Source of the DNA: an uncultured virus (IMG/VR IMGVR_UViG_3300038345_000393)
Taxonomy: Duplodnaviria; Heunggongvirae; Uroviricota; Caudoviricetes
Virus record (IMG/VR): IMGVR_UViG_3300038345_000393
Direction: 5' to 3' (one strand)
Length of the DNA stretch: 64,000 nucleotides
Shown: piece by piece, positions 16,457 through 61,988 of the stretch
How positions within the stretch are numbered: the first letter of the stretch is position 1
How the letters are laid out: the number at the start of each line of letters is the position of its first letter
Program-made: the position numbers and the translations under genes
The notes under the pieces: generated by a model
Database searches by the model: none
What the model saw: the letters and a program-made list of their open reading frames with translations, nothing else
What the model was told of the DNA's origin: nothing

Positions 16457-16638
16457 TAATTCATTATATCTTTATTATTTTTCTTGCGGAAACTACCAAT
16501 ACATAGCGCAACCAGGTTGATAGTTATTAATTTTCATTTCAATTGTATACAAAATAAAAGGGTGTTTTATTGAAAAACACCTTAATATTTCGCCTAATCT
16601 TTTTAAAAAAGAAGCACTATGAAGCTTTCCAAACCAAA

Positions 16639-17972: not shown

Positions 17973-19286
17973 TTAATTTAATACATCGTTTGACCAGCTA
18001 ATCCATATTTTTACAATTTGAGCCCTTCTTTTAGCTAAGCCAACAGAGATACCAGGATATTGTTCAACAAGATCTTTTGCAATCTCATCAATAGTTAAAG
18101 ACCACCCACCATTATTTGTCGCTTCTATGTATAACTTAGTAAAGACAATATTTCTTCTAATAGCTAGCGCAAATTCTTTTTTGAATTCGTCGCTACCAGT
18201 CTTCATTTTTCTCAGTTGTAATCCACAATCGGTAAAATCGTTTTTGCTGTTAATTATTCCCAAAAATTTAAGTGATGAAACCATATGAACAATTGTTTTA
18301 TGCGGATATTTGCTAAACCTTTTATCTAAAAAATCAAAATCAGAAATCATATCTTTGTTTCTTATCTTTATAAGCGGAAATAAAGATTCAACATTCTTGA
18401 TATATGGAAAAGCACAAGGAATTCCCCAAATAAGTATTTCTTCACCATTGTTTCTCAAGTTAGCCTTGCAATTAATACTGCGTTTAGTTGCCAGGCTCAT
18501 TACGTCGTAATACTCGTAATAGTGTTGTTTATCGTTGGTGAATTCTTTAACCACTTTGTCTGTGTAATTATTAGAAATAATGACATAAGCCCCTCTTTCA
18601 AGTGCGGCGTCACATTCGCGTTTAAGCTCTAAAAAATCCTTAAAAGAGAAACCAGATTTTTGATATGAGGTAAAACCATCATTTTCTTTGTAATCATAAG
18701 GAGGATCAATATAAACAACATCACCCATGCCTGCTTTTCTAATTGCATCCACATAGGAACCATTCATTATCACCACATCAGGTTTGTTTAAATAAGCAGA
18801 AATGGCGAGTATGTTTTTCTTATCATAGAAAGATTTAATGCTGTTTCGTCCAATTGGTGTATTAAAAAACCCTGCAGCATTAACGCGATACAAGCCGTTA
18901 TAGCATGTTTTGTTAAGAAAAATAAAACGAGCCGCTATTTCTAAATCAGATAGACATTCAAAATCAGCGTTTCTGTCCATTCTTCGAATTTCATAATAAA
19001 AATCTTCGCCTCTTTCTTGAAACAATCTATATAGCTCATCAAGACGAGACATCAAAGCATCCGGATTGTCTCTTATCGTTCTATAGGTCTTCATCAATTC
19101 GGAGTTTAAATCGTTAATGATCGTTTTGTCGTTATTGAGCGAAAGAAAAACGACACCACCTCCAACAAATGGCTCAATAAATCGATATGATTCTTTATTG
19201 TCATACTTGGTACTATCTTTTATTTTTTCAAGAATGATATCGATTATCTGTCTTTTTCCACCGGCCCATTTAACAAATGGTTTCAA
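17973..19286 (-). CDS. dam: Dam/DpnM-family N6-adenine methyltransferase with ~140-aa C-terminal extension
   Basis: KPFVKWAGGKRQ, EPFVGGG, NKTCYNGLYRVN, YIDPPY. Confidence 0.93.
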   Translation of the reverse strand: MKPFVKWAGGKRQIIDIILEKIKDSTKYDNKESYRFIEPFVGGGVVFLSLNNDKTIINDLNSELMKTYRTIRDNPDALMSRLDELYRLFQERGEDFYYEIRRMDRNADFECLSDLEIAARFIFLNKTCYNGLYRVNAAGFFNTPIGRNSIKSFYDKKNILAISAYLNKPDVVIMNGSYVDAIRKAGMGDVVYIDPPYDYKENDGFTSYQKSGFSFKDFLELKRECDAALERGAYVIISNNYTDKVVKEFTNDKQHYYEYYDVMSLATKRSINCKANLRNNGEEILIWGIPCAFPYIKNVESLFPLIKIRNKDMISDFDFLDKRFSKYPHKTIVHMVSSLKFLGIINSKNDFTDCGLQLRKMKTGSDEFKKEFALAIRRNIVFTKLYIEATNNGGWSLTIDEIAKDLVEQYPGISVGLAKRRAQIVKIWISWSNDVLN

Positions 19287-19290
19287 AATA

Positions 19291-20028
19291 TTACCCCGCT
19301 ATTTTAACAATATATTCGTAAAGATATTCTTCAACTTCATCTTCATCCATAATACTGACGTGACTTACATTGCTGAGACAAGATAAATGGGTGAGAACTC
19401 TATGAACTTTTTTAGTAGGAAGCGTTGTATTGCTTTCTTTTTCGTATTTAATAACAGCCTTGATAAAAGCTAATCTAGCTATCTCATTATCAACGAAAGT
19501 GTAAAATACCATACGTCTTAAACCAGCATGGCCTAAAACGTACTTAGTGTATTCAAATCTATCATCAAGCCTATCATCTATTGAAAGAGAAGCTAATAAA
19601 TATAATCTTCCGACAATATTCCTCGCCATAGATCTTCTAACGTCCCCTTCAAAAAATAAAGTTCCGGAAAGGGATTTAATTTTTTCGTTTTGATTTAATA
19701 AATAACTCAAATAGTATTTGTAGCCGAATTGAAGTGCAAAAGCAGGCATGAATTTGTTGTTACAAATAACAGCTTTGCCTAAGCCTGCAGATTCAAATGC
19801 TTCATAAAGCAATTTAGCGTTATCAAAATCGTATTTTCTAGGTTCGTCATTGTCATATTTGAGTTCAATATCAAAATCATAGGCGGTGTTTTGGAGTTTG
19901 TGCTCTTTAAAAAAATCATCAAGCCATTCATTTGAGGCAGGATTTTCCCTAATCATCTTTTCAAAAGATTCAATATTGTTTGTCGCAAATGAAACGCTAT
20001 CGTCTGTAAAGCTCTTAAATTTTGCCAT
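19291..20028 (-). CDS. DUF6339-like protein
   Basis: DFDNAKLLYE and RSMARNIVGRLY resemble DUF6339 as recalled; sits in GHKL/MTase operon. Confidence 0.45.
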   Translation of the reverse strand: MAKFKSFTDDSVSFATNNIESFEKMIRENPASNEWLDDFFKEHKLQNTAYDFDIELKYDNDEPRKYDFDNAKLLYEAFESAGLGKAVICNNKFMPAFALQFGYKYYLSYLLNQNEKIKSLSGTLFFEGDVRRSMARNIVGRLYLLASLSIDDRLDDRFEYTKYVLGHAGLRRMVFYTFVDNEIARLAFIKAVIKYEKESNTTLPTKKVHRVLTHLSCLSNVSHVSIMDEDEVEEYLYEYIVKIAG

Positions 20029-20030
20029 AA

Positions 20031-20915
20031 TTATTCTCCCTCATCCATCTTGTTTACCCAGTTCTTAACGAAAGACAAAAGATTGTTTATCGGTGTTTTT
20101 ACTAGCAACTGAGCAGCTTTGTAAGGCTCAATATCACTTTCAGTCGGATCTTGCTTAATTATTTTCTTATACTTTTCAGTAATGACTTTGTACCATTTTT
20201 TATCTTCGTATTGTGCATTAAATTCATTCATTTCTTCAGAATCAGGTGATTCGTGCATTTGCCTTAAAATATCAGTTAAAGCAGGAATAATGAAGGATGC
20301 TAGAATTACTTCAGATTTACGATTTTGAACTTTGTCGTATAGTTTTTTCATTTGCTTAGGAACAATGAAGTAGATAATGTCATCGTTAAGCTTATATGTC
20401 ACCGGACTAAGAGGATCCAAATTAATATTTTCTTGGAATTGAAAAATGGAGGTTTTTCTTCCTTCTTTCTTATGTTCTAGAGGAACTGTAACTTTTGAAC
20501 TAGTACCAATATCGTTATACTTTTCAACCCAATAATTATCCCCAGCCCATTCTTTTGTCAAATCCGAGTTCGTGTAAGAAAAAGATTCTTCAACTATAAG
20601 ATGGGCGGTAAATTCTACTCCTTTTTCGACATCCATTTTGTTAACATAAAACTTGATGTTTTTAGCATCATACGGAACTTTTTTAGAAATGTTTAATCCA
20701 ACAGGCTGACAGAAAAGTTTCACTACCACAGCTAGTTTTTTATCTAAAATCAGTTGGTTTATTTCTTGGTTGTCGATAGAATAGGTAGCTTCAAAACATA
20801 TCTGTTTATCGCTTACGCCTCTTGCGACCTTTAAATCGAATTTTGTTTTTTTATAATTGTTGAGTTCCTGGCTCAAATAAGGAAATGATGAGGTTTGTTG
20901 CTTATTCGTTTGCAT
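20031..20915 (-). CDS. hypothetical protein coupled to the GHKL ATPase
   Basis: 294-aa ORF overlapping upstream gene; SFPYL start, beta-rich N-half, WY near C-terminus. Confidence 0.65.
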   Translation of the reverse strand: MQTNKQQTSSFPYLSQELNNYKKTKFDLKVARGVSDKQICFEATYSIDNQEINQLILDKKLAVVVKLFCQPVGLNISKKVPYDAKNIKFYVNKMDVEKGVEFTAHLIVEESFSYTNSDLTKEWAGDNYWVEKYNDIGTSSKVTVPLEHKKEGRKTSIFQFQENINLDPLSPVTYKLNDDIIYFIVPKQMKKLYDKVQNRKSEVILASFIIPALTDILRQMHESPDSEEMNEFNAQYEDKKWYKVITEKYKKIIKQDPTESDIEPYKAAQLLVKTPINNLLSFVKNWVNKMDEGE

Positions 20916-22914
20916 TGATATTTACCTCCCACATATAAATTTTGTGCTCTTCGAGTTTCACTGATATTTTGTAAAGAGCTCCTTTTTTCATAGTATCCAT
21001 GTAAACTTTATTATCCTTAGTGGTGAGCTGTTTGCCATTCAAGGTAGCCTCAACAACATTGATTGGCTCATTTTCATCTCCTGAACCAGATTTAAGTATT
21101 TCTATTTCGACATCCTCGCCAGATTTAGAAGGAGAGAAAGAAAGTTCAAACAACCCTTCTTCTAAATTTTTAACAGGCATTTTTGAAGATATTGTTGAGA
21201 CGGGTTTTCTTATCATCATTTTTTGTCCATCTTCATCTATGACAACGTTGTTATCATCTTGGCCAGGGTGTGGGTCGTTACCTTTCCCTTTATTTTTGCC
21301 TTCTGGATGAGAACCTGAATCTGTTCCGTCGTCAGTTTCAATGCCTTTTCCTTCTTCATAGCCTTCAGCTTCTCCCTCTGGATCTGGTTCTGTTGCCTTA
21401 GTTTTTTTAGGTTTTCTTTTTTTAGAAGGTTCTTTCTTCTTAATTGGTTCAAAAACTATTTCATCTGTTGGAAGACCAGAATCTTCATTTGCTGTGCCGT
21501 CCAATGTGTCTGAATTGTTGTCTGAATTCCACCCTTCATCACTAGCCCAATCAAAATCAGAAGATTTGCCATAGTCTTGTTCTTCTATTTTTTCAAGTTC
21601 TGATTCAGCAAAATTCTTAACCGAATCAATCGCAGCATAAATCACATCTTTAGAATAATTTGTGTCTCTATATTTCAGCTTCGACCATTTTTTATGAGAG
21701 GCATCTTCAACAGATTTCAATTCTTCACATAATTCTTTACCTTTAATAAGCAAAATGCCTGTATATGGAATAGAACTGTTTGTTTTAAAAATTTCAATTC
21801 TCATTTTTGTTTTCCATCTGTATGAATAGACTCTATTTAAAGCTGTGCTGCTATTAACAGAAATAAGCATATTTAATTCTCTGTCGCCACCAGTATCTTT
21901 TACCGCAGTAGCAAAAGGATGATTGAGTGTTTTATATAGTTCTTGTGCAATTGACATTGTGCTATCTTTTTCAAAATACATTGGGTTTAAAATATTTGTG
22001 TACAAGTTGGCCTTCTTAGTTTCCAAAAAATCATTGTGGATTGAATCACTTATTGTGACTTCCAAATCTCCATCATTAATAGCTGGTAAAAAACTAATGA
22101 TAGCCTCGCCCATCATTTTTGATGTCCACCCTTCTTCAGCCAAAAAGAAAGGGACAAAGATATCAGTACCATATTCATTTTCATTTCTAACATAATTAGG
22201 ATCGATATCATTAATTAATCCATTGTTTGGAGTATTCATTTCTTGAGCTTTAACTTCTTGACTAACACAATAGCCTATGCCTTGTGTCCAATCAGGGAAG
22301 CCTTTGCCGTCATCGTCAACGTCTTTTGCCACCAATCTGGCATAGCCAATATTTCCTTGTTCACCATCTATGGTTGACGTTGAAACAAATATTGTCCTAA
22401 TTGCAGAATTTAAGAAAATAGCTGCTTTGCCTAAACCCTTGGAACCGCCAGACCCATCTTCTTTAACATCTTTACCACTACCGCTAATAAAAGCAAACCA
22501 AGGCATTTGCCTTTCCATTGGAGTTGAAACGCCACATAAGCCCTTAGTGTTTTTATCTGAGATCCTGAGCCATGTTATACCTTTTGTTTGAGATTGAACA
22601 AAGCATTGAAAAATCCTATTCATCAACGCTCTTTCTTTTACTTCTGGTTTATCTTTTAATTTATCCCTATCAAGCCAATCTTTAACATAATCAAACAAAT
22701 ACTCATTTAAAGCTTTGAAAGAATTGGAGTCGGTCTTGAATAAAGAAAACTCTACACGTACAGGCTCATTACCGCTTCTAGCATCAAGCGAATTTTGGAT
22801 AACTTCTCTAGCAAGATTTCCAAGTGGATCATCACCAAAATCATCTTGCCCTAAATCTTGTTTGCCACCAGCGTTCCCTCTACGTGCAAGTGGCCAATAC
22901 CATGATAAACTCAT
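20902..22914 (-). CDS. GHKL (HATPase/MORC-like) ATPase
   Basis: LAREVIQNSLDA, LRISDKNTKGL, GGSKGLGKAA, GTDI; acidic/Gly-rich linker near the C-terminus. Confidence 0.8.
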   Translation of the reverse strand: MSLSWYWPLARRGNAGGKQDLGQDDFGDDPLGNLAREVIQNSLDARSGNEPVRVEFSLFKTDSNSFKALNEYLFDYVKDWLDRDKLKDKPEVKERALMNRIFQCFVQSQTKGITWLRISDKNTKGLCGVSTPMERQMPWFAFISGSGKDVKEDGSGGSKGLGKAAIFLNSAIRTIFVSTSTIDGEQGNIGYARLVAKDVDDDGKGFPDWTQGIGYCVSQEVKAQEMNTPNNGLINDIDPNYVRNENEYGTDIFVPFFLAEEGWTSKMMGEAIISFLPAINDGDLEVTISDSIHNDFLETKKANLYTNILNPMYFEKDSTMSIAQELYKTLNHPFATAVKDTGGDRELNMLISVNSSTALNRVYSYRWKTKMRIEIFKTNSSIPYTGILLIKGKELCEELKSVEDASHKKWSKLKYRDTNYSKDVIYAAIDSVKNFAESELEKIEEQDYGKSSDFDWASDEGWNSDNNSDTLDGTANEDSGLPTDEIVFEPIKKKEPSKKRKPKKTKATEPDPEGEAEGYEEGKGIETDDGTDSGSHPEGKNKGKGNDPHPGQDDNNVVIDEDGQKMMIRKPVSTISSKMPVKNLEEGLFELSFSPSKSGEDVEIEILKSGSGDENEPINVVEATLNGKQLTTKDNKVYMDTMKKGALYKISVKLEEHKIYMWEVNINANE

Positions 22915-23291: not shown

Positions 23292-23308
23292 AGGACATTT
23301 TTCGTCCT
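23292..23308. promoter_or_regulatory. palindromic operator-like site AGGAC-N7-GTCCT
   Basis: Matches the reverse complement of 24464-24480 at 13/17 positions. Confidence 0.45.
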
Positions 23309-23335
23309 TCCATCATTTTTAATAATGGTTTATCA

Positions 23336-23870
23336 TTGTTGTGCATTGGAACCCAGTGTATGCCATCTTGCTGATGGCTGGGGCCCAACCAAGTAAGGCA
23401 ATAATGTGGGATACTGCGTTAAAGTCAAGACCTCGTTAGTAATAACTAGGTATTCGGAACTAAAAAACCGCTTTGGTTGGTGGCGCGATACGCTCTTCGA
23501 TGTAAACAACTACCTGATAGGCACGACAAGTGGCTCCGTAGAAATACGTCCCGCGTCCAGATGTTAGGCTTGAGAACCTAATATCTCCGCTCTCGAAACA
23601 AGTGTTCGCTTTGATGGATGGTAACATCCTATAACTGTTTGGTAGGTACCATTAGGAGAACAGCGATATTTGATCAATAAATGAGAATATCATCTGCTGA
23701 AGCTCTCTGAAGGTTGGAAGGCAATTCAGATCCTTCCCTAGGTTACGGTTAGTAATAACCCATTCTGGAAGTATGAGGATCGCTACCTCTTACTCAGCCC
23801 AGCGTGCTAGTGTGTGAATAACAAATTAGAGTAAGTGTTGTAAGGTGAAGGCCTCCGATGCCTTTTTTAT
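23336..23870 (+). ncRNA. large ornate structured ncRNA candidate (~530 nt)
   Basis: GC-rich, no credible ORF, four GNRA-capped hairpins, long-range closing helices, AATAAT -10-like element upstream, terminator at 23848-23868. Confidence 0.75.
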
Positions 23871-23886
23871 TAAGTGAGGTATTAAA

Positions 23887-24123
23887 ATGAATAAATCTAA
23901 ATCAAAAGCAGTATACACAAATAAATGGCTTTCTAGAAATAAGCAACATTGGAAAGTTGACGAAGTTGATGGTGCTGAAGTAATTATCATCACCAAATTG
24001 GATAGTCCTAAAATTGTTTTTGATCGTGTCTATGAAATTAACAAAAAGCGCATTGCCACTAGAAAGGTTGCGATAAGAAATCTTTTATTAGCAATCAACG
24101 AAACTAAAAAGACATCCCGTTAA
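23887..24123 (+). CDS. small basic hypothetical protein
   Basis: GAGGT RBS, 78-aa ORF right after the ncRNA terminator. Confidence 0.6.
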   Translation: MNKSKSKAVYTNKWLSRNKQHWKVDEVDGAEVIIITKLDSPKIVFDRVYEINKKRIATRKVAIRNLLLAINETKKTSR

Positions 24124-24325
24124 GGATGTCTATTGCGGATACTCCGAAGAGTTCCGCGAAAGTATTAACGACGTCAATACTTCCTGTTCCTTCGTTTTCT
24201 ATGCGTCGGATATTTCTAACGCTATAGTACGTAAGGTCGGCTACGTCTTCCTGCGTCCAGTGTCGACTTAGCCTTAATTGCTTAATCGTTTTTCCAATTA
24301 AGCTTGTCTCAATCATTTTGCTCAT
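24104..24325 (-). CDS. XRE-family HTH transcriptional regulator
   Basis: IGKTIKQLR...WTQEDVADL...IRRIENEG; GGAGG RBS. Confidence 0.88.
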   Translation of the reverse strand: MSKMIETSLIGKTIKQLRLSRHWTQEDVADLTYYSVRNIRRIENEGTGSIDVVNTFAELFGVSAIDILNGMSF

Positions 24326-24504
24326 AAGTACCTCCTAATAAAAATAATTGAATTTTAGAAAAATCTTTTGCTTCGACCTGAGGTCTAATATGGAGGTGCT
24401 CTTAAATATGAGCAGAGTTATTCTATAGAACAGCAAAACAATAATCAAGGATTATTTGTAAAGCGGACAAAATGTGTCCTCTTTGTTTTGCAAAGGAAAA
24501 GGAA

Positions 24505-37523: not shown

Positions 37524-38975
37524 CTACCCAAGAACGGATAGGATTTCGGAGGACTTTAAGTGTTTCTTTTCAAAGAGAAGTTCACCTAACTTTTTAATTT
37601 GATTAGCGTGCTCTTTGATATATTTAGTAGCTTCTTTTTCGCATTTTTTTAGTAAGCGTTCAATTTTGCGCTCCATCTTTCTTCGTTTAGTAGCGGTTTC
37701 GATTCTTGAACCTTGTCTTACAGGAGGTAAAGTTTCCCAAGCGGAAGAATAACCACACATATTTATCATATTGTAGGCATTAATTCTCGCTCTTTGGAGG
37801 TCATCTTCACAACCTCTAGAACCTCTACCAAAGAAAATCTTTTGAGCAAGAAGACCCGCCATTGAGATTTTAATATCAGCGATAACTTTATCATATGGCC
37901 AGAAGCCTCTTTCCACTTCTTTGGCGGTAAAGGCGCCTGAGGCACCACTGATATTGATACGATTGATTAAGAAGTACTGTGGATAAGCGTGAGCCATACA
38001 AGCGTGCGAAGCTTCGTGAATTGCCACTTCGATATTATCTTCTTCTGGAGAATCTTTAACTCTATCAGTAATGTTATAGATGGATTTAAAGAGCATATCA
38101 CTAGTGATATTTTCAAAGCCGTTTCTTAAGACTAAGTCATTAACAACCGCTTTTACACCAGCACAAGAGATACCGTTTAGAGATAACGCCACTTCTTCTT
38201 CATCAAAGTCTTCTGGAATATTAACGCCAAATTCTTTTAAATGAATTTTTAATAGTTCTAAAGCTTCTTCTCCTGATGGATATGGAATCTTAATGAGTTT
38301 TTCTAATCGACCATTACGTAATAATGGATCTGGTATTTCTCTAATATAGTTAGTCGCCGCAAGCACTAAAATGTCATCAGAAGATTCAACACCATCAAGA
38401 TTTTCTTGAAGAGCTCTAATCACTCTTCTTTCTCTATTGATTAATAAATCTAATTCATCAATAACGACTACTGCGTGACCTGTTTCTCTCGCTTTAGCGA
38501 ATGTTTGAGTAATACCAGCAACGATATTAGTTTCATCACCTTTAAGAATAAAGACAGGTGCATCAACGCATCTAATGATTTCTTTAATTAGTAAGGATTT
38601 ACCATTACCTGGTTCACCAAAAAGAATGACGCCTTTAGGAATGGATACACCTTTGGCTTTAAGTTCTTTAGAACGTTTAAACCAATCAATAACGTCTAAT
38701 AGTTCTTTCTTTTGATTAACGTGACCAATAACTCTTTCTAAAGGTTTTTCACCTTCATTTAAGCCGTGGTTATATATGAGTTCATAACATTGTTTGTTAT
38801 TATTACTATTTTCTTCTTTTTTATCTTCAGAGTCTTTTTTATTTTCTTCTTGTTCATAAGCACGATGCATTTCTCTAATTTGTGCTTCGATTTCTTCAAT
38901 ATCAAGTGGTTCGATATCTTCGAAATCATCATCGTCTTCAATAATGTCATCGTTTAATGTGTTTTTATCTGCCAT
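37524..38975 (-). CDS. FtsH-like AAA+/M41 metalloprotease without TM anchor
   Basis: GEPGNGKS, IDELD, AATN, RNGRLE, HEASH, GCEDDLQRA; acidic soluble N-terminus. Confidence 0.85.
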   Translation of the reverse strand: MADKNTLNDDIIEDDDDFEDIEPLDIEEIEAQIREMHRAYEQEENKKDSEDKKEENSNNNKQCYELIYNHGLNEGEKPLERVIGHVNQKKELLDVIDWFKRSKELKAKGVSIPKGVILFGEPGNGKSLLIKEIIRCVDAPVFILKGDETNIVAGITQTFAKARETGHAVVVIDELDLLINRERRVIRALQENLDGVESSDDILVLAATNYIREIPDPLLRNGRLEKLIKIPYPSGEEALELLKIHLKEFGVNIPEDFDEEEVALSLNGISCAGVKAVVNDLVLRNGFENITSDMLFKSIYNITDRVKDSPEEDNIEVAIHEASHACMAHAYPQYFLINRINISGASGAFTAKEVERGFWPYDKVIADIKISMAGLLAQKIFFGRGSRGCEDDLQRARINAYNMINMCGYSSAWETLPPVRQGSRIETATKRRKMERKIERLLKKCEKEATKYIKEHANQIKKLGELLFEKKHLKSSEILSVLG

Positions 38976-44994: not shown

Positions 44995-46266
44995 ATGGCC
45001 AAAGAAAACGCTCATAACGGTAAACAAGTCAACGCGACAAGATTAGAACTTTTTATCGCTTTACAATACTTATTAGAAAAGTGTCCAGATAAAGAACACA
45101 CTTCTAAAACTATTGATCTTCAACAATACGCTGAAGATAAATTTAATGTCCTTTTAGATAGAAGAAGAGTTAATGATATCTTCGCTAGTTTAATGGATTT
45201 CACCACTAAACATCCTAAGGTTTTGCCATATGTTATTAAACAAGTGGAAGATAAACCACGCTATTACATTAAAAAGACATTATTTAGTAATAAAGAAATT
45301 GAATCTATCGCTAAAGCCATTCAAAACGATACCTCTATTTCCACTTCAAAAGCGGAAAAATACGCTGATGCATTTTTAAATGTCGCTTGTAATGAAGCGG
45401 ATAAAGAAAAGATTAATAAAAAACTTAAGAAAAGCGAGATGCGTAAATTAAGAGTTAGTGACTTTGAAATGAAAGTCAAAGAAAACTACGAATACTTAAG
45501 AGATATGCAAATGCGCTTCTACTTTAAGTTTAAAAGAGTGGTCAAACGCACTGATTGCACTGATTATCAGACATTTAAACTTCTTTCTGAAACGGAAAGA
45601 AATAAAGAACACGCTGGTATTGTTTTTGAAGTTTACACTGTTAAAAAACAAACTGATGTTTGTATCTATTTACCAGATATGAAACAAGCGGTCATCGCTC
45701 ATATGGAAGATATTGAGCTCAATACCGCTTTTGAACCAGTCCCTCAACTTAATACAGTGAGTTTCTATATTGGTGAGGAGATTACTCTAAGTGACTGGGT
45801 TAATAATTATTACAAAGGTTCAACTGGACAAACTTATCCAATTAGATTTGCCTTCCCTGCTGGTTTAGATAACACCATCTTAAGAAAGCACCTTAAATCT
45901 TTTGAAGCATTCTTTAATGAACAATTAAAGTATGAAATCAAAGAAAGAAAAGTTAAAAAAGAATTATCAGATGGTAGAACCGAAGAAGCCGTTGTTAATG
46001 AAGTGTTTGCCACCACTAAACATAACTATGAATCATTTAGAAAATGGTTCTGGGAAAGTGAAAGTAAACCATATGAAACTGTTGTAGTTCTCTTCCCATC
46101 CGCCTTCAATGATCGTTTATTAGGCCCTATCACTCGTCGTTTCCAAGCGGTTATTGATAACTTTGGCTTTAACAGTGAGCACGGTAAAACCGAAAGAGAA
46201 GTCTTTGAAAAACGAATCGCTGAACTTAAAAAGAAAAAGGAGGCCGGAGCCTCCAATCCTAATTAA
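44995..46266 (+). CDS. WYL-family-like transcriptional regulator (divergent)
   Basis: N-terminal wHTH RLELFIALQYLLE...EH...DRRRVNDIFASL and FSNKEIESIAKAIQ...IS typical of wHTH-WYL proteins. Confidence 0.65.
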   Translation: MAKENAHNGKQVNATRLELFIALQYLLEKCPDKEHTSKTIDLQQYAEDKFNVLLDRRRVNDIFASLMDFTTKHPKVLPYVIKQVEDKPRYYIKKTLFSNKEIESIAKAIQNDTSISTSKAEKYADAFLNVACNEADKEKINKKLKKSEMRKLRVSDFEMKVKENYEYLRDMQMRFYFKFKRVVKRTDCTDYQTFKLLSETERNKEHAGIVFEVYTVKKQTDVCIYLPDMKQAVIAHMEDIELNTAFEPVPQLNTVSFYIGEEITLSDWVNNYYKGSTGQTYPIRFAFPAGLDNTILRKHLKSFEAFFNEQLKYEIKERKVKKELSDGRTEEAVVNEVFATTKHNYESFRKWFWESESKPYETVVVLFPSAFNDRLLGPITRRFQAVIDNFGFNSEHGKTEREVFEKRIAELKKKKEAGASNPN

Positions 46267-46918
46267 AGATAATCTTTCTATCGCGATAATTAACGCAGCA
46301 TTCTTTCTCAAAGAGTGTCGTGATATTACCGACCATATAGATATTAGATATCATAGATGCCACTTGAACGTTGTTACAAACATCGATCTGGCATCTTTTA
46401 TTTTTGATAGTAATTTCAGTGTGATAAATAGAAGAATGTAAATCCCCTAAAGTTGGATTATAGTCATCTACTTCACTATATGGAGTTAAACCAACGAACA
46501 CTGATCTATTACCATATGCATATCTAGCCCCTGTATCAACAAGAAAGAGTTTACTTTCATTAACATTAATGATGGGGGCGATATTAAAGCCCACCATTGG
46601 ACAAGTAATGCCCCTAATATCACTTGAAGCAAAGTCGATACGACCACCTTCTTCGCTATCTTTATAAATTGTAAAGCCAGTTTCACCAAAGACATCTAAA
46701 CCTAATAAGCCATCCACTGGATAGCCCACTAATTTATGAGTCTTTTTAATATCAAAGCGATATCCAGGAGCGCTTAATGCGTGATAGATGTCGTTTACCT
46801 TAACCATATTTAAATCGCTTCTAAAAGTGATGGAATATGGATAACCTGTATCAAGAATGTAATGTTTGTTATCGATTTCAACGATGTAGTGATTGTTTAA
46901 GAGTCTGTAATTATACAT
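46259..46918 (-). CDS. clan AA (retropepsin-like) aspartic protease with two DTG motifs
   Basis: YILDTG...DGLLG and FLVDTG...MVG. Confidence 0.7.
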   Translation of the reverse strand: MYNYRLLNNHYIVEIDNKHYILDTGYPYSITFRSDLNMVKVNDIYHALSAPGYRFDIKKTHKLVGYPVDGLLGLDVFGETGFTIYKDSEEGGRIDFASSDIRGITCPMVGFNIAPIINVNESKLFLVDTGARYAYGNRSVFVGLTPYSEVDDYNPTLGDLHSSIYHTEITIKNKRCQIDVCNNVQVASMISNIYMVGNITTLFEKECCVNYRDRKIIFN

Positions 46919-46919
46919 A

Positions 46920-47513
46920 TTAAATACCTACCTTACTTGTGACATAGATGAGAAGATAATTGTTTAAAACATTAATCTCTTCTCTAGGACCATCTCTTCT
47001 TTCATTAAAGATGATTTCAAAATCATTATTTGGAACGCGCTTAGGTGAAACAGCGCACACGATTTTATCGTATTTACCCACTAAACGTTTACTTGGAATG
47101 CCTTTCGCTCTCGCACATAATCTAAATCTTTTTAAATATTCTTCTGATATGAAGCTCGCTAATTTAGTTAAATAGAGGAGTTCTTCAGGGTCAGCATAAA
47201 CAATATCGATACCAAGTCTTAAAGCATCGTTAAATAAGATATCTTTACTATGCTGTTTAGAAAGTAATTTATCGTAGTTATATTCAGGACGAACTGCCTT
47301 GTTGATGAACAAAGAATCCATCACAGATAAACTTGGAAAGTAGAATTTAACTTTTTCATCTAATTCTTGAATTAAGTTAACCGCGAAAGCGACATATTGA
47401 TTCCAGCCTCTTTCTTCAAAGAGTTCTAATTCTTCATTGATTCTATCTAATTCTTCTTTTGAATTAGGAAGAGTTAAAACTCTTTCTTTAATTTGTTCAA
47501 ATGTCTGTTTCAT
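46920..47513 (-). CDS. protein resembling a fragment of DNA Pol III alpha (start re-called to 47513)
   Basis: DRINEELELFEERGWNQYVAFAVNLI parallels the DnaE/PolC RLxxELxxIxxxGFxxYFL helix; GGAGG RBS. Confidence 0.45.
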   Translation of the reverse strand: MKQTFEQIKERVLTLPNSKEELDRINEELELFEERGWNQYVAFAVNLIQELDEKVKFYFPSLSVMDSLFINKAVRPEYNYDKLLSKQHSKDILFNDALRLGIDIVYADPEELLYLTKLASFISEEYLKRFRLCARAKGIPSKRLVGKYDKIVCAVSPKRVPNNDFEIIFNERRDGPREEINVLNNYLLIYVTSKVGI

Positions 47514-47652
47514 ATTTCTTCCTCCTTTTATAACTACCTTTACCCTTTTTGGGTTTATAAATGTTGGCCCTAGTTGTCTTTTGGACTTCAAAGTGCATCT
47601 TATTGGGTAATTTAGTTTGATCCACTTTGACTTTGATTACTTCTTTCTTCAT
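47497..47652 (-). CDS. 51-aa ArfA-like peptide (not in ORF track)
   Basis: MKKEVIKVKVDQTKLPNKMHFEVQKTTRANIYKPKKGKGSYKRRKKYETDI; GAGG RBS; KKGKGSYxR motif. Confidence 0.65.
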   Translation of the reverse strand: MKKEVIKVKVDQTKLPNKMHFEVQKTTRANIYKPKKGKGSYKRRKKYETDI

Positions 47653-47661
47653 AAGCCCCTC

Positions 47662-48084
47662 CTACTTTAATTCACATAGTTCTTTATATACTTTGTTATA
47701 GACAAATTGATTAGGCGTGTATTTATAATTAGCGAATACGTTAATGCCTTTATGAGCGTATCTTTCTAAGATAGCCGCGGCTAAACCTGCACTTCTTGAG
47801 ATACCATAGTCACATTGACAAATAATATCTTTTCCTTCTTTTACCTTTTGATGAACGTATTTAGCGATATCTTTAGCTTCAGGAAGAATGGAATCGTAAT
47901 GCTCTTTAACTGTGGTATATGGTCTAATGTCATAAAAAACTACTTTAAAGACATCAGTGCCTTTAGGAAAATCTAAGAATTCATCTTCTTCATCAGCGAA
48001 AGACACTATTGCAGTGTTCTTAGGTAAGGCATTCTTTTCGAACAAGCGATATAAATGCGCTTTAGATAAGATTGTTATTTTCAT
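47662..48084 (-). CDS. PTP/dual-specificity phosphatase-like protein
   Basis: CX5R loop CDYGISRS and C-terminal PNQFVY. Confidence 0.85.
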   Translation of the reverse strand: MKITILSKAHLYRLFEKNALPKNTAIVSFADEEDEFLDFPKGTDVFKVVFYDIRPYTTVKEHYDSILPEAKDIAKYVHQKVKEGKDIICQCDYGISRSAGLAAAILERYAHKGINVFANYKYTPNQFVYNKVYKELCELK

Positions 48085-48378: not shown

Positions 48379-48387
48379 TATTAATTA

Positions 48388-49154: not shown

Positions 49155-49212
49155 AAAAAAGGTATCCTGTCATAAAGGACACCATTTTGTGCACATCTAA
49201 GGACATTTTTAT

Positions 49213-49374
49213 TTAAATATCTTCGTCATTTTCTTCTGTTAATTCATGAAGAATTTGCATGATTAATTCTCTTTCTTGTTTTAACCTAATGCCTTCTCTA
49301 ATGAGAAGAACAAGAGCGACGATACAAACAATGGCTAACAAAAGAAGGGCAATACTTGCAATCGCCCTAGCCAT
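49213..49374 (-). CDS. 53-aa single-TM protein (not in ORF track)
   Basis: MARAIASIALLLLAIVCIVALVLLIREG...EENDEDI; overlaps the stop of the HslV-like gene. Confidence 0.55.
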   Translation of the reverse strand: MARAIASIALLLLAIVCIVALVLLIREGIRLKQERELIMQILHELTEENDEDI

Positions 49375-50020
49375 TACCTTTCACTTCCTTATCTTTCTTC
49401 TTGTGGTCACCGAGATACTTGCCCTCATTTTTCTCGGTGACGATTTCGAACTCCCCAGTCTCAGTATCCGTAAGTATGATTGGATAGTCCACGTAAATAT
49501 CACAAGCCGCACTGGACTTGATTGCTTTTACGATCCTTTCCTTAGGACTTTGTCCTTCGGTAGAGAGCAAGCTACCAATCGCTTGATCAGAGCCACTACC
49601 GATGGCGACATAGTCTTCGACTTCGATAACACTCTTATCTTGACCAATACAGTAAAGTTGGTCTTGATAAGCGAATAGGAAGCTTGATTCAAGACAATCA
49701 GTCTTTTCCCCGTCCTTAAGGAAGTTATACCTCGCTAGTTCACTAACGATGTCTGGGACAACTTTCTTGACCACGAAGTCAAAACTGATGTGCTCTTTGT
49801 AAATGTTATATTCGGTCACTAAGTCAGGCATAAGTCTAATGACGTTAGCGTCTCTAAACATACCTACTTGTGCCATCAAGCAATGCGGAGCGCCAATCAC
49901 TCTCCACACTTTGTAGTTGTTTTCGTTTTTAAGTGTTGTTCTTGTGCCACCTCTTGTGACTTGGGAATCCGCACCGATGTAAACCTTACCATTTTCTTTA
50001 ATTGCTACTATTACGCTCAT
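49367..50020 (-). CDS. Ntn-hydrolase (HslV/proteasome beta-like) peptidase
   Basis: MSVIVAI...YIGADSQVT...K and YVAIGSGS. Confidence 0.75.
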   Translation of the reverse strand: MSVIVAIKENGKVYIGADSQVTRGGTRTTLKNENNYKVWRVIGAPHCLMAQVGMFRDANVIRLMPDLVTEYNIYKEHISFDFVVKKVVPDIVSELARYNFLKDGEKTDCLESSFLFAYQDQLYCIGQDKSVIEVEDYVAIGSGSDQAIGSLLSTEGQSPKERIVKAIKSSAACDIYVDYPIILTDTETGEFEIVTEKNEGKYLGDHKKKDKEVKGNG

Positions 50021-50038
50021 ACATTTCTCCTTTATTAA

Positions 50039-51109
50039 TTACTCTGCGTTTATGATGTTAGTGTGACCTAAATACTGGTCACTAACGGCCAATAGGTCAC
50101 ACTCTTTTATCTCTGATAACGTATCGACTGAGATGTCATCTGAATCGTTAAGTCGTCTTGCTTGAAGCTTGATTATATCTTCAAACAAATTACGAACTGA
50201 ACGTCCATTTCCACTCAAATTGTCGATACCATTGAACATTTCCTTGACTCTCTTTTTAGCCTCTTTATCGAGGTGATAGTCGTTGTCCTTTAAGAAGGAC
50301 ATGAAAATGTCCAATAACTCCTCATTAGAGTAGTCATCAAATGAGATGATGGTCTTGAAACGAGAACTAAGACCAGGATTAGCATCAAGGAAATCCTGCA
50401 TCTCGTTTTTGTATCCCGCGACAATGACCACTAAATCATTACGATGGTCCTCTAAGAGTTTTGTTAACGTATCAAGCGCTTCATATCCATATTCATCGTT
50501 ATCATTACGACATATGGCATATGCTTCATCGATGAATAAGACTCCACCGATAGCGCTCTCCACCACCTTTTTAGTCTTTTGAGCGGTTTGACCAGCATAT
50601 GATGCTACTAAACCACTGCGATCAACTTCGACTAGTTTATTAGTGGGTATGACACCTAAAACCTTATATATGTCTGCAAGCATACGTGCTACGCTAGTCT
50701 TACCAGTTCCAGGATTACCAACAAACACTAGGTGTCTGGTAGTTTGAGGAACTTTAAGCCTAAACGCTTTACGTAACTTATTGACATTGATTTCACAAAC
50801 CATGTCATTAATTTGCTCTTTGATACGAGATAAGCCAATCATATGATTAAGCTCATCAAGGTATGGTTTTAAGAGAGCATCCACTCGTTTCTTATCACTA
50901 GCGACGTAATGAACAGTGAATTGGTCCATTAATTTATCGTCGTTAAGGATAAGATGACGATACATGATAGAATATGTGGTAAAGGTTTTGATCTCTTCAC
51001 CAAACTTACATTTGATGAATTCATCATCCTCAATGTCCACGATTACACCATTACCATAATCACGATGGTAAACGCTTTGGTTGATAAGTTTCTTTAAATC
51101 AAATTCCAT
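50039..51109 (-). CDS. CbbX/SpoVK-type AAA+ ATPase
   Basis: HLVFVGNPGTGKT, GGVLFIDEAY, NPGLSSRF, GNGRSVRN. Confidence 0.9.
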   Translation of the reverse strand: MEFDLKKLINQSVYHRDYGNGVIVDIEDDEFIKCKFGEEIKTFTTYSIMYRHLILNDDKLMDQFTVHYVASDKKRVDALLKPYLDELNHMIGLSRIKEQINDMVCEINVNKLRKAFRLKVPQTTRHLVFVGNPGTGKTSVARMLADIYKVLGVIPTNKLVEVDRSGLVASYAGQTAQKTKKVVESAIGGVLFIDEAYAICRNDNDEYGYEALDTLTKLLEDHRNDLVVIVAGYKNEMQDFLDANPGLSSRFKTIISFDDYSNEELLDIFMSFLKDNDYHLDKEAKKRVKEMFNGIDNLSGNGRSVRNLFEDIIKLQARRLNDSDDISVDTLSEIKECDLLAVSDQYLGHTNIINAE

Positions 51110-51128: not shown

Positions 51129-51152
51129 TGGGTATCCTAAAAACGATATTTT
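51129..51152. repeat. 24-bp intergenic repeat, copy 1
   Basis: TGGGTATCCTAAAAACGATATTTT, identical to 58786-58809. Confidence 0.9.
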
Positions 51153-51175
51153 ATATTTTTTCTTATAGAAAAAAC

Positions 51176-51200
51176 AAAAACCGCCATTTTCGGCGGCTTT
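51176..51200 (-). terminator. intrinsic terminator after AddA-like gene
   Basis: CCGCC-ATTTTC-GGCGG stem flanked by A and T runs. Confidence 0.75.
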
Positions 51201-51222
51201 CGTTTATTTTTCGTTAATTTTA

Positions 51223-58613: not shown

Positions 58614-58785
58614 TAACTACCTCCAAAAATCTATTCAATATAAATAACCGTCTACCTAATCCCTCTACCAGACTGCGCCAAAGATAAAAAGGAGACATGA
58701 CAGAAAAGGCGCAGCTGGATAGAAAGGAGGTTTTATGCTATGTCTTAAAGACGGACAATGTGCTTTCTAAGTTACCCATTTTTAC

Positions 58786-58809
58786 TGGGTATCCTAAAAA
58801 CGATATTTT
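58786..58809. repeat. 24-bp intergenic repeat, copy 2
   Basis: Identical to 51129-51152. Confidence 0.9.
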
Positions 58810-58830
58810 CTGTTTTTATAATATAAAAAT

Positions 58831-58855
58831 AAAAGCCGCCTTTTTCGGCGGTTTT
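58831..58855 (-). terminator. intrinsic terminator after the RNAP-like operon
   Basis: CCGCC-TTTTTC-GGCGG stem flanked by A and T runs. Confidence 0.75.
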
Positions 58856-58877: not shown

Positions 58878-59093
58878 TTAGCTCTCTGTAGCGATTAGTT
58901 CTTCGTTTTGATTATAGAGTCTAATTTGTCTCCAGCGTGGAAGAGTCTTTGTAACACGATACTCGTGAGACTGCTCTTGAACAACTTTTAGAAACATTGT
59001 GTCGGCTTCTTCTTTGGTGCATATTTTTGACCAAATGGTTTCTTCAGTTCCGTCAAAATTATCTTTAGCGATTCTAAATCTTTGCTTTTCCAT
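58878..59093 (-). CDS. small hypothetical protein
   Basis: 71-aa ORF with AAGGAG RBS directly after the RNAP-like gene. Confidence 0.6.
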   Translation of the reverse strand: MEKQRFRIAKDNFDGTEETIWSKICTKEEADTMFLKVVQEQSHEYRVTKTLPRWRQIRLYNQNEELIATES

Positions 59094-59111: not shown

Positions 59112-61988
59112 CTATTCATCTAGCATCTGTTCCATACCTGACAAAAGTTTATCAATGGATGAATGCTTATAATAATATTTATCAAATAGATCAAAACTAG
59201 CGTATCTCTTATTTGTTCTTTCTAGAGATGGGATACCACCATCGACATCAAAGAGATCTTTATATGTATACCCAAGATCTTTTTCTGAAATGATGTATAA
59301 AAGAATGAATAATAAGGTATATGGTGTTTCTTTTGTTAACCCTTCAATCATTTCAATTAGTTTTCTGGTTTTTTGAAGAGTGCTAATACCTGATTTGATT
59401 TCTTCGTAGCACTTATTAATCTTGTCATTGAATTCTCTTTTTTCCATATCAAAGGACTTGGAACTCTTTTTGGCTTGATTTTTCTTATAAATAATCTTCT
59501 TTAGTTTCTTTAATTCTTCTAAAGCATGATTGATTTGTTTGTAATTATCACTAGATAATCCCTTAGTGGTTATATCTTTTCTAACTAAAGAGAAGAATGG
59601 TATGGTTTCAACATTTTCCATTGATTCTTTGTTTTCATAAGTATATTTCCATAAGCGATCCATTGTGGTATTGAAGAATGGTCTGTTGTTTTCAATGTGT
59701 TCTTTTAAATGACTATTTATTTTACCCGCTGTTGGTTTATCTTTTGTTTCTGGGGCAACATAATAGAAGAAAACAGGCTCTTCATCAAAACCATTATCAA
59801 TCGCGTATTTATTAACTTTGTTAAAAACACTGACGGTAGTAAAATCAAATGACTTTTTAGCACTATCAATTTCAGCACCTGCTAAAACAGCAAGAATAGC
59901 AATCTTGTTATATAGTTCGACATCATCAAAGCCTTTATTTGGATTATCATACTTATCAGTATTGTTCCAATAATGGGAATTTAGTTTTTGTGATAAGTTA
60001 ACAATCATACCAACTCTGTTGTTAGCAATTTTATTATCTAAATCGATAATGTTGCCAATTAAGTCTTTATTAATATTTAAACCAATTGATTTGCTATCAA
60101 AACCTGTACAAGGAACAGGAAACTTGTGATAGTTCTTTTTGGTAACGTTAACAATAACTCTATTATTAGTTAATAAAAGTGTATCGCTATCATAGTCAGC
60201 ACCATTAAGACGTTGTTGTATATTGTTATTAATTGCGTCCACGACTGCGATATTTCTTGTTAAATTAAACCATTTGTCTAAATCTTTTGGTTTTTTATTG
60301 TGGGCGTAGAGCAAATTACCCATTGTCATATGAGGGGCACGTGAACCAGCGATTTCTTCGTCAGTAAAGAAACTGCAATATATTTCATCTCTATTTAATG
60401 AAGAAACTATACCATTGGCTTCTAATAAGGACTTATCATCTTTCTTAATGATGTATTGAAGATATTCAAGAGGATTACCAAATAATGTGGCATATGTCCC
60501 TTCAATTAATAGTCTTCCATCATATAACTTTAAATGGAAACTATCGATGACGTTATTGAATAAGTGATTCTTGAATAGGTTTGTTTTCTTGAAGTCTTTG
60601 CAAAGATCAAGCATTTCATAACAAACTTTGTTTTTAAATGAGTAGGAAGAATAATTTAATTCATTATCTTCGATAGCGGTATCTTCACTATCGTCTTCCA
60701 TATCTTCATCATTAGTGACTTCAATATCTTGTTCTTTAACTTCGCCTTTTAAGAATAACTTCACATATTCTGGAGTGTTTTTAATATCACGTATTTTATT
60801 AACGTAATCAAAATATGGTGATAATAATGGTCTAAGTTCAGTATCTTTCTTAAGACTCAATGTATTTAACAACTGATATGTTGTCTCTACCATATCACCA
60901 TTAAAGAATCTTGTTTCTTTATCGGTTTTAACAATACCAAATGTTGACAAGCGATTATTACTAATAGCGTCACACCATCTCTTGATGTTTTCTTTATTAA
61001 AACCACCTTTTGTCATCTTAAGATATTTAAGACAAGATTCAGAAACCACTAAAACGATATCTTTGATATCTGTAGCAAAGGTAATGCCGTTAAGTTGATC
61101 AACTGATGTGATGTTATTGTATTTAAACCAATCTTGTAATCTAGTATTAAAAGTGCAAGCTTTAAAGAATCTATTTCTTAATAGCATCATGCCTTTAAGA
61201 TGATCTCCACTATAACCACATTCGTGGAAGATGGAGTCATCCATTAAACCTTCGCCATCAAAGATATTATTTTCGATATCGTTTTTGCCTCTTTGGGCCA
61301 CTAAACCTTCACCTTTAATATAATTTACTTTAATAACTTCTTCGTCTTTTAAAACGTGCTTAAAGTCTTTAACAAAGAGGATATTATATGGATTTAACTC
61401 TAAGGTTTTTGTGAGGCTAGATAGGGATAAGGCTTTATAAGCTTCATATGAAGTTAAGTTATCTAGATAACCGTCTTTCTTTTCGTTTAGTCCCGCTTTA
61501 GACCAACTATTCATTAACTTATATAGTTTTTCTTTTATAAATAAACAGGATGCACCTTTAGCCGCACTAGCGGTTCTTTTATAGCGAACATATTTCTTAC
61601 CGTTTAGAATAAAGCCGTCTCTATAAATCGCTTCTCTCATTTGACTAGGAGCGTAGGTATCTCCCACTATTTCTTTTTTATCGAAAACGCGTTCTTTTTT
61701 ATCATTCATCCATAAAGAATATTCAAAAGAAACATTAACAAAGTCATCAGTGTAATATTCACCATTAATTGTTTTGCTTGTTAAGGTATTGTTCTGAATA
61801 TCAAATTTCTTTTCATATTCAAGAAGATATAAAAGATCGAGATTAAACGCTAAAACATCACGATAATGCTTGTCGAAAGATTCTTTAGTGTTTTTGACTT
61901 CCAACTTTTCATTAACGATATATTGAGCACGGTAAATCTCCGCTGCTTGTAAAAGTATGATTCTAAAAGAAGGACAGTTGCTATTCAT
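59112..61988 (-). CDS. YonO / eukaryotic RdRP-like single-chain double-psi-barrel RNA polymerase
   Basis: IFDGEGLMD, MLLRNRFFKAC, GSRAPH, QQRLNGADYDSD (DxDxD), AEIDSAKK. Confidence 0.8.
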   Translation of the reverse strand: MNSNCPSFRIILLQAAEIYRAQYIVNEKLEVKNTKESFDKHYRDVLAFNLDLLYLLEYEKKFDIQNNTLTSKTINGEYYTDDFVNVSFEYSLWMNDKKERVFDKKEIVGDTYAPSQMREAIYRDGFILNGKKYVRYKRTASAAKGASCLFIKEKLYKLMNSWSKAGLNEKKDGYLDNLTSYEAYKALSLSSLTKTLELNPYNILFVKDFKHVLKDEEVIKVNYIKGEGLVAQRGKNDIENNIFDGEGLMDDSIFHECGYSGDHLKGMMLLRNRFFKACTFNTRLQDWFKYNNITSVDQLNGITFATDIKDIVLVVSESCLKYLKMTKGGFNKENIKRWCDAISNNRLSTFGIVKTDKETRFFNGDMVETTYQLLNTLSLKKDTELRPLLSPYFDYVNKIRDIKNTPEYVKLFLKGEVKEQDIEVTNDEDMEDDSEDTAIEDNELNYSSYSFKNKVCYEMLDLCKDFKKTNLFKNHLFNNVIDSFHLKLYDGRLLIEGTYATLFGNPLEYLQYIIKKDDKSLLEANGIVSSLNRDEIYCSFFTDEEIAGSRAPHMTMGNLLYAHNKKPKDLDKWFNLTRNIAVVDAINNNIQQRLNGADYDSDTLLLTNNRVIVNVTKKNYHKFPVPCTGFDSKSIGLNINKDLIGNIIDLDNKIANNRVGMIVNLSQKLNSHYWNNTDKYDNPNKGFDDVELYNKIAILAVLAGAEIDSAKKSFDFTTVSVFNKVNKYAIDNGFDEEPVFFYYVAPETKDKPTAGKINSHLKEHIENNRPFFNTTMDRLWKYTYENKESMENVETIPFFSLVRKDITTKGLSSDNYKQINHALEELKKLKKIIYKKNQAKKSSKSFDMEKREFNDKINKCYEEIKSGISTLQKTRKLIEMIEGLTKETPYTLLFILLYIISEKDLGYTYKDLFDVDGGIPSLERTNKRYASFDLFDKYYYKHSSIDKLLSGMEQMLDE

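Follow-up and report, generated by a model that had tools for sequence, protein, structure and literature searches.

A YonO-type single-chain RNA polymerase gene and a candidate promoter motif downstream of it in defence islands of rumen Bacilli

The IMG/VR record IMGVR_UViG_3300038345_000393, entered as an uncultured virus of the Caudoviricetes, was analysed over its whole length of 64,000 nucleotides (nt), here called the window. It carries a gene for an RNA polymerase of the two-barrel type represented by YonO of the Bacillus phage SPbeta and by RNA-dependent RNA polymerases (RdRPs), followed downstream by a terminator-like hairpin and by copies of a sequence motif that is a candidate promoter of the encoded enzyme. 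The polymerase gene and the features of its downstream region that bear on transcription are as follows.

59112..61988, minus strand: gene for a single-chain two-barrel (YonO/RdRP-type) RNA polymerase of 958 amino acids (aa), catalytic loop DYDSD
58832..58855, minus strand: intrinsic-terminator-like hairpin with a T-run, conserved in loci L152 and L154; putative end of the polymerase transcript
58786..58810, minus strand: candidate cognate promoter, copy A, with the core AGGATACC at 58788-58795
58651..58735, minus strand: conserved hairpin opening with the anti-Shine-Dalgarno-like CCTCCTTT; strand of action uncertain
51129..51205, minus strand: second unit of terminator and motif, 8 nt before the ribosome-binding site of an AAA gene
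49161..49183, minus strand: third AGGATACC, within one arm of a terminator-like hairpin; ambiguous

An earlier note, made from the letters of the window alone, had described a 958-aa frame with motifs in RdRP/YonO order, and this was confirmed. D244-G-E-G, R271..K276, R550-A-P552-H and G-A-D598-Y-D600-S601-D602 follow one another in that order, and the DGEG, R..K, RAPH and GADYDSD positions were without variation in alignments of 64 and 68 rows. Residues D244, R271, K276, R550, P552, D598, D600 and D602, invariant in both alignments, were the counterparts (placed by spacing and alignment with YonO, not by superposing atoms) of the eight invariant active-site residues, four Asp, two Arg, a Lys and a Pro, listed in a passage of Ruprich-Robert and Thuriaux (PMC2919709). 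The kinship with YonO and RdRPs and the double-psi-barrel fold proposed in the same note were likewise borne out. An AlphaFold2 model (pLDDT 88; pTM 0.86), examined with Foldseek and VIA-align, contained two double-psi-barrel domains within one chain in a QDE-1-like fold. Top Foldseek matches in the Protein Data Bank were QDE-1 and RDR2 (E value about 2e-14; TM 0.45 to 0.48), VIA-align gave a Z of 20.6 to maize RDR2 (root mean square deviation, 5.8; 638 aligned) and 18.8 to QDE-1, and gp64/gp62 of Thermus phages ranked after them (Z about 15). Using HHalign, the family profile matched SPbeta YonO with a probability of 98% (E value, 2e-13; 533 columns), pairing DGEG with DGCG, RAPH with RSPH, and DYDSD with DNDGD. 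The polymerase matched phrog_8308 of PHROGs (E value, 2e-75), which has no annotation; profile scans gave no Pfam, NCBIfam or PADLOC match to the polymerase itself, and a sequence search of solved structures returned only two chance matches. In the Atlas clusters of the family, PF05183 (the Pfam RdRP family) was present in 24 to 32% of members, none directly for the window protein. Judged by sequence and model, the 958-aa frame is a real two-barrel polymerase of the YonO/RdRP type.

The same note had remarked on Ser in place of the Gly of DxDGD. The serine is present but is not peculiar to this protein: DxDSD was carried by 120 of 120 listed homologues in place of the canonical DxDGD, with the DxDxD triad retained. 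Among 72 viral loci found independently of this motif, 57 had DSD, one had DGD and 14 gave no match to the regular expression; the GTDB loci are not an unbiased count of DSD because DxDSD was one of the three patterns used in that scan. An inactivating or unique change was rejected, the serine being family-wide and shared with phage members. Ratios of nonsynonymous to synonymous substitution (dN/dS) were 0.04 to 0.14 in seven of seven pairs (0.058 against L153), and by this measure the polymerase is under purifying selection at every depth compared. The family took in 467 of 7,999 proteins scored and 708 clusters at 50% identity (E values up to 1e-30), and GTDB yielded 302 family stretches, 80 of them retained for analysis. 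Peptides of the window used singly as queries gave no matches in GTDB or IMG/VR; alignment-based scans did give matches.

To place the gene in context, the open reading frames (ORFs) of 205 polymerase loci and the window were clustered, and 40 family representatives were annotated. Setting A comprised phage loci with the SPbeta-like order polymerase, phosphoesterase, HU, terminase and portal. Setting B comprised small mobilizable elements in Clostridia, with the polymerase, winged helix-turn-helix (wHTH), Xis and ribbon-helix-helix (RHH) genes, a MobP3 relaxase and one or two integrases; of 18 such loci scanned, 8 had tRNA-Pro downstream. Loci of setting C held FtsH-like, HslV-like, M28, aspartyl and zincin proteases, MoxR/VWA and SNF2. 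Settings B and C formed one clade of 95 proteins, with zero IMG/VR members, at a support of 1.0 in a FastTree phylogeny of 158 distinct, unsplit proteins no shorter than 690 aa. Considering loci with at least 5 kb downstream, head genes followed the polymerase in none of 39 loci of this non-phage clade versus 46 of 56 outside it. IQ-TREE, run on 69 rows, gave the non-phage branch an SH-aLRT of 100 and needed one phage/non-phage change, the direction of which is not given by the tree because YonO, the outgroup, forms a long branch and no bootstrap was made. The window's own branch held 31 proteins, and with the same requirement of 5 kb a gene of a protease/AAA set, defined from these same data, lay downstream in 14 of 14 loci versus 0 of 56 outside the clade.

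Scans of window ORFs against Pfam (51 ORFs) and PHROGs (24 and 35 ORFs) gave no capsid, portal or tail family, bearing out the earlier statement that these 64 kb hold no capsid, tail or terminase gene; rows reading "terminase" were rejected as P-loop cross-matches of an AAA ATPase (E value, 4e-4) and of FtsK, both of which matched their own families far better. The cognate terminase (TerL) was detected in none of nine draft host genomes of the non-phage clade and the cognate portal in none of four, with the controls detected in each search. No tyrosine or serine recombinase lay on the polymerase contig of any of five carrier genomes (one contig being only 4.3 kb), no type IV secretion system coupling protein was found in five carrier genomes, and the Pfam scan of window ORFs gave no integrase, relaxase or coupling protein; integrase and relaxase are present in the sister branch of integrative mobilizable elements (IMEs). 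Neither an ordinary SPbeta-like prophage nor conjugation genes, for which the note had advised inspecting the flanks, were found in the window or on the carrier contigs. The long direct repeats of the window were only a 72-bp unit and one gene duplication; the island ends lie outside the window, and four contig sets aligned to it showed strain variation and no joint that would define them. As to the note's "non-phage element", non-phage holds for the window's branch because its clade has no head genes and neither terminase nor portal was found in the draft carrier genomes; that the branch is a mobile element is unproven, no recombinase having been found on the five contigs.

The survey also yielded observations on other branches. 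The IMEs of setting B, roughly 10 kb and found in gut Clostridia, have the polymerase as their largest core gene and the order polymerase, terminator hairpin, wHTH, Xis, RHH, MobP3, Int, often followed by tRNA-Pro (L010, L012, L015, L024, L030, L042, L044-L046, L048, L060, L064, L068 and others); this family merits its own study. Phage polymerase genes were often divided into two ORFs, in some cases separated by an HNH gene (L051, L104, L119, L125-L128, L130, L133, L137, L138, L146 and L191), which suggests introns near the active site. Distant frames of 930 to 1024 aa with RYPH...GADFDGD, from related genomes (L233-L235 in G084, G054 and G124), are a candidate for another two-barrel family.

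The nearest genome-placed relatives of the window polymerase (about 50% identity) came from genomes of 1.1 to 1.7 Mb assigned to Erysipelotrichaceae or Bacilli, which we take to belong to the order RFN20. The best match to the window among DNA data sets came from a bovine gut metagenome. A 203-kb contig of genome G004, carrying rpoBC and operons for ribosomal proteins, ended in an island of about 48 kb that repeated the window order (polymerase, FtsH-like, ADP-ribose genes, DUF2130, XRE, antisense ROOL, PDC-M33, methylase and NERD); the contig stops 9 kb upstream. In L023 and L156 the cassette was only 8 to 12 kb long and was flanked by housekeeping genes. The polymerase was patchy, occurring in 4 of 101 relatives of G004 and truncated in one of the four, and sat in defence islands with restriction-modification (R-M), GmrSD, DarT/macro/NADAR, AbiEii and Fic genes. 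The window's branch is chromosomal, in small-genome Bacilli of the rumen, and its polymerase is followed by protease/AAA genes, FtsH-like and HslV-like ones among them.

When the 200 nt that follow the polymerase stop codon were searched by Gibbs sampling in 11 loci of the window's branch, this returned the motif cTATAGGwTAYYc, located 29 to 93 nt past the stop, with an information of 12.9 against 9.5 to 10.3 in six shuffles that were run with fewer restarts than the real set. In leave-one-out scoring against 89 control regions, the best site fell on the motif in 9 of the 11 loci, and did so with p<0.08 in 8. Locus L069, the only real hold-out, scored 15.1, and the 500 nt upstream of the same FtsH-like gene in three polymerase-less genomes scored 1.1 to 6.5; expressed as 12 of 12 versus 0 of 3 (p 0.002), this test is circular because the 11 training sites are included. 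The two best-scoring sites of the whole window, at 58795 and 51138 on the minus strand, fell within copy A and the second unit, which were 85% alike over 72 bp and identical in a 24-nt core. Both copies come after a terminator, with no sigma-70 match of at least 9 of 12 positions before the next start codon. Three occurrences of AGGATACC in 11 kb were equalled in one of 2000 shuffles, the pattern having been chosen afterwards and two of the copies sharing a duplication. A strict IUPAC version of the motif missed known sites and was uninformative. The hairpin at 58651-58735, the one RNA element tied to the cassette, lies in a putative leader and has weak support from covariation, showing two-sided change in 8 of 18 pairs with many pairs broken.

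One phage clade carried a related motif, ATAGGACAyTTTAGACA, at the matching place before its head operon, and cross-scoring of the two motifs was modest, giving p values of 0.017 and 0.028, with sites coinciding in 6 of 11 and 7 of 14 loci. For YonO, a passage of PMC5467207 describes one long late transcript that starts downstream of the yonO gene, its promoter sequence undetermined there. The motif cTATAGGwTAYYc is a candidate cognate promoter of the polymerase, and its conservation after the polymerase stop lends indirect support to the "own transcription system" of the earlier note, in which its part would be that of promoter. Separately, ATA(G/C)GACAyTTTAGACA, 60 to 115 nt after the polymerase stop and before the head operon of SPbeta-like Clostridia phages (L071, L082, L084, L086, L087, L008, L040, L093 and L117), is a candidate late promoter of those phages.

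Further genes of the window, by distance from the polymerase stop, were the following.

58878..59093, minus strand: ORF of 71 aa, also found in L153 and L155 but missing from L152 and L154
58437..58613, minus strand: acidic ORF of 58 aa
57438..58424, minus strand: HExxH zincin-like protein (FAHELGH) of no Pfam family, also 3' of the polymerase in L023, L152, L153 and L154
56981..57445, minus strand: 154-aa zincin partner, also in L023, L152, L153 and L154
51223..56909, minus strand: AddB-like and AddA-like nuclease/helicase pair
49367..51109, minus strand: SpoVK/CbbX-like AAA ATPase, then an HslV-like peptidase
46259..48084, minus strand: dual-specificity phosphatase-like, uncharacterized and aspartyl-protease-like genes
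37524..38975, minus strand: soluble FtsH-like AAA and M41 protease with Walker A and HExxH, without a strong N-terminal hydrophobic segment
31214..36629, minus strand: ADP-ribosylglycohydrolase, accessory DnaB-like helicase and macrodomain protein
9695..22914, minus strand: defence cluster of GmrSD, LlaJI-type restriction pair, two methylases and PDC-M33ABC, partly collinear in G004

The FtsH-like gene was the commonest neighbour in the window's clade. HslV-like genes also lay downstream of the polymerase in L026, L033, L156 and L169, and polymerase-adjacent homologues were found of the dual-specificity phosphatase-like gene (L159) and of the aspartyl-protease-like gene (six loci). PADLOC gave only generic AAA/helicase cross-matches for the polymerase neighbours. 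Upstream, the polymerase adjoins a 442-aa gene without a family (62021-63349), a slot that was exchanged between close strains (L152, L153 and run X5) and replaced in one aligned contig. Beyond it, a GC-richer intergenic element at 63467-63637, ending in a terminator and without an Rfam match, was kept in L153, L163 and aligned contigs, even when a different gene occupied the interval separating it from the polymerase. A 10-base N gap at 33469-33478 splits the ORFs at 32641-34265 on the plus strand, which are probably one gene.

The earlier note had counted four unexplained structured RNAs in the window and suggested that they could be products, templates or cofactors of the enzyme. They are not all orphans, as Rfam assigns the first three of the features below; an Rfam search of the window by E value gave no further family.

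23328-23874, plus strand: ROOL RNA
11952-12063, minus strand: COG3943 RNA
44698-44788, minus strand: SAM-I riboswitch
23293..24479, no strand assigned: ROOL module of a palindrome (23293-23307), ROOL, a convergent XRE gene (24104-24325) and a second palindrome (24465-24479)

According to passages of PMC5737381 and PMC12286853, ROOL is known from prophages and non-prophage regions, its function not known. A GGAC-N7-GTCC palindrome stood 5' of ROOL in 10 of 16 copies and an XRE gene beside it in 8 of 16, an arrangement that suggests a dedicated regulator of ROOL; a TTGAC box resembling a -35 element was seen at four copies and not at the window copy, and the polymerase motif did not lie upstream of the window ROOL. 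The loci concerned were the window, where the XRE gene is preceded by the second palindrome, and L167, L208-L210 and L238-L247. The distance between ROOL and polymerase was 35 kb in the window, 17 kb in G004 and about 1 kb in L167, and in G001 and G008 ROOL was located away from the polymerase. Across the 101 relatives, 9 of 11 ROOL-bearing genomes had no polymerase, and 4 of 7 polymerase carriers, which are drafts, had no ROOL. ROOL was present in 3 of 7 carriers versus 9 of 97 other genomes (p 0.03, with unequal detection methods), and within the 101 genomes Fisher's p was 0.058, or 0.35 using BLAST only; the counts are lower bounds because BLAST missed the known copy of G001. The ROOL profile matched only 1 of 205 polymerase loci. 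COG3943 occurred in 14 of 101 genomes, 11 of them without the polymerase, and in 3 of 4 carriers versus 11 of 97 (p 0.008; p 0.24 within the first 37 genomes, taken as the nearest kin); in none of four genomes did it share a contig with the polymerase. The co-occurrence that the note had proposed to check was a modest enrichment, with most RNA carriers lacking the polymerase. The RNAs are most readily understood as fellow cargo, with the polymerase, of accessory islands, and the proximity of ROOL to the polymerase in the window, G004 and L167 is read as shared island cargo.

SAM-I riboswitches recurred in islands (L188, 12022-12129; L219, 233-332), and that of the window precedes a 139-aa gene of no known family, not a methionine gene. 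GC-richer intergenic stretches with several hairpins lie at 48085-48387 and 11994-12313, the latter adjoining the COG3943 RNA; neither had a homologue among the fetched loci. Intergenic folding z-scores mark several regions, some containing small ORFs or terminators.

The explanation favoured, with a confidence just above even, is a private transcription unit run by an active, DNA-dependent single-chain polymerase of the YonO family, in a lineage no longer serving virion genes. On the pattern of SPbeta YonO, host polymerase would transcribe the polymerase gene and halt at the terminator; the single-chain enzyme would then initiate at its own promoter just downstream and read a co-directional block of swappable proteolysis, AAA, ADP-ribose-handling and DNA/RNA repair genes, not head genes. 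The setting would be the chromosomal defence islands of small-genome rumen Bacilli, and the resulting unit would be independent of host sigma factors. The observed basis is the fold, the intact active site, purifying selection, the non-phage clade, the neighbourhood and the conserved motif. That the polymerase is enzymatically active appears probable from its sequence and model, and by analogy with YonO its template would be DNA; for the unit as a whole we infer a role in stress or phage conflict, and control of the polymerase by the FtsH-like protease is speculation. A bolder version, possible and held only tentatively, is that a domesticated phage-derived one-chain RNA polymerase serves as a second, orthogonal transcription machine whose own promoter drives an operon of proteolysis, ADP-ribose reversal and repair whenever the RNA polymerase of the host is blocked or taken over (for example, during phage attack), a sister branch using the same enzyme as a core gene of tRNA-Pro-targeted mobilizable elements.

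Several results weigh against the private transcription unit. The closest solved folds are RNA-templated enzymes. In G009:C36 (L069; L278, 10808-11806) the polymerase is reduced to its first 332 codons and the downstream motif is retained, and the FtsH-like gene stood without the polymerase in 3 of its 5 carriers among the 101 genomes. The protease/AAA set was counted in the data from which it was defined, and one of its families may take in generic AAA proteins. The motif matrix is unspecific, with 26 sites of at least 10 bits in 200 kb of G004:C7, most of them inside ORFs. Scoring did not recover the motif in deeper non-phage loci (18 loci; p 0.54), in IME loci (22; p 0.94) or in the other phage loci (20; p 0.14); Gibbs searches gave only the terminator hairpin in IME loci and nothing clearly over shuffles in the deeper non-phage loci. 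An operator or recombination site tied to the 3' end of the gene could look alike.

The defence-island setting with R-M, GmrSD, DarT/macro/NADAR, AbiEii and Fic genes, the patchy presence in 4 of 101 relatives and the recurring protease neighbours would also suit a polymerase that is itself an anti-phage effector or sensor (through RNA, RNA:DNA hybrids or oligonucleotides on infection), restrained or triggered by those proteases, with the motif an ordinary regulatory site. This is considered unlikely: the polymerase has no PADLOC match, its partners vary between loci with no fixed operon, and the motif position mirrors that of a phage late promoter. A role as primase, or as a helper in the replication of a selfish mobile element, an idea put forward by Aravind and colleagues for bacterial RdRP-like proteins in passages of PMC3417536, is judged quite unlikely. 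The sister branch, setting B, is a true mobilizable element (an initiator-like wHTH gene, Xis, RHH, MobP3 and integrase(s), with tRNA-Pro in 8 of 18), and the window contains accessory DnaB, FtsK and AddAB-like genes. The window's branch, however, had no recombinase on five of five polymerase contigs, no coupling protein in those genomes and no second DnaB near the polymerase in five genomes, and it forms 8- to 12-kb cassettes between housekeeping genes in L023 and L156; the primase reading is better suited to setting B.

That the polymerase marks the remnant or edge of an ordinary SPbeta-like prophage, with virion genes outside the window or recently lost, is largely refuted and very improbable. 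Late operons of the SPbeta-like kind are indeed headed by relatives of about 35% identity, and HslV, MoxR/VWA and ADP-ribosylglycohydrolase neighbours are also found in large phages, but head genes were absent from all 39 clade loci, none of the 95 clade members came from IMG/VR, TerL was detected in none of 9 genomes and portal in none of 4 although the controls were, and purifying selection was seen at every depth. It is equally hard to credit an RNA-templated enzyme, or one dedicated to the island RNAs (ROOL and COG3943) as products, templates or cofactors, as the earlier note had supposed. Its top structural matches are RdRPs, ROOL lies near the polymerase in three places with the enrichments given above, and the YonO transcript begins with an unannotated non-coding RNA in a passage of PMC5467207. 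Yet 9 of 11 ROOL and 11 of 14 COG3943 carriers lack the polymerase, the enrichments fade in the same 101 genomes (ROOL) and in the first 37 (COG3943), COG3943 is never on the polymerase contig, a single polymerase locus in 205 matched the ROOL profile, ROOL has its own palindrome and XRE gene and lacks the motif, and YonO strongly prefers DNA (PMC5467207, in part).

The enzyme class is already known and has so far been studied only in phages. Chromosomal or element-borne YonO-like genes were noted before, in passages of PMC2919709, PMC3417536 and PMC7824862, and passages of PMC2919709 and PMC5467207 (2010 to 2017) left open what such chromosomal genes transcribe and from which promoter. The present analysis delineates a large clade outside the phages, describes its gene neighbourhoods and puts forward a concrete candidate promoter of 15 to 25 nt, so that this question is reduced to a simple run-off assay. 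If the private transcription unit is real, it would be a transcription system on the host side that does not depend on the cellular polymerase, its promoter would be the first for any YonO-type enzyme, as far as the literature searched shows, and the pair could be an orthogonal expression tool.

The literature searched contained no account of the DxDSD non-phage clade, of its protease cassettes, of the motif or of the MobP3-Int elements; some neighbourhoods may be shown in the primary Iyer papers (2003 and 2012) and supplements. YonO-like proteins of Firmicute genomes and "selfish elements" (PMC2919709 and PMC3417536, in part) are likewise chromosomal, sporadic, two-barrel and not necessarily phage. 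They differ in their restriction endonuclease/URI nuclease neighbours, RNase H fusions and the primase idea, and the passages concerned hold no FtsH/HslV/MoxR cassettes, MobP3-Int elements at tRNA-Pro or promoter motif. The eukaryotic RdRPs of RNA interference, QDE-1 and RDR2, are the top structural matches (Z 18.6 to 20.6 over about 640 to 670 residues), but identity is about 12% and the RNA-silencing role is theirs. Gp64 of Thermus phage P23-45 and gp62 of P74-26 share the single-chain two-barrel fold and have promoter motifs of their own, but are smaller, phage-encoded and of another sequence family (PMC10770324, in part). Pipolins, as described in PMC11551731, offer a conceptual parallel, an unusual polymerase being the minimal core of variable defence-gene platforms; theirs is a DNA polymerase (piPolB), usually with integrases and direct repeats, whereas the window's branch has an RNA polymerase and no integrase was found in it. 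YonO of SPbeta (Forrest et al. 2017, PMC5467207) differs in identity (23%), in its DNDGD against the DYDSD of the window, and in the downstream block, which in the window consists of proteases and repair genes without virion, lysis or integrase genes; about 200 extra C-terminal residues of the window protein are not aligned to YonO. The two are nevertheless homologous over 533 columns, each a single chain of similar size with the same catalytic residues, and in both the gene is followed by a stem-loop and then by a block of genes that is the likely target of the enzyme.

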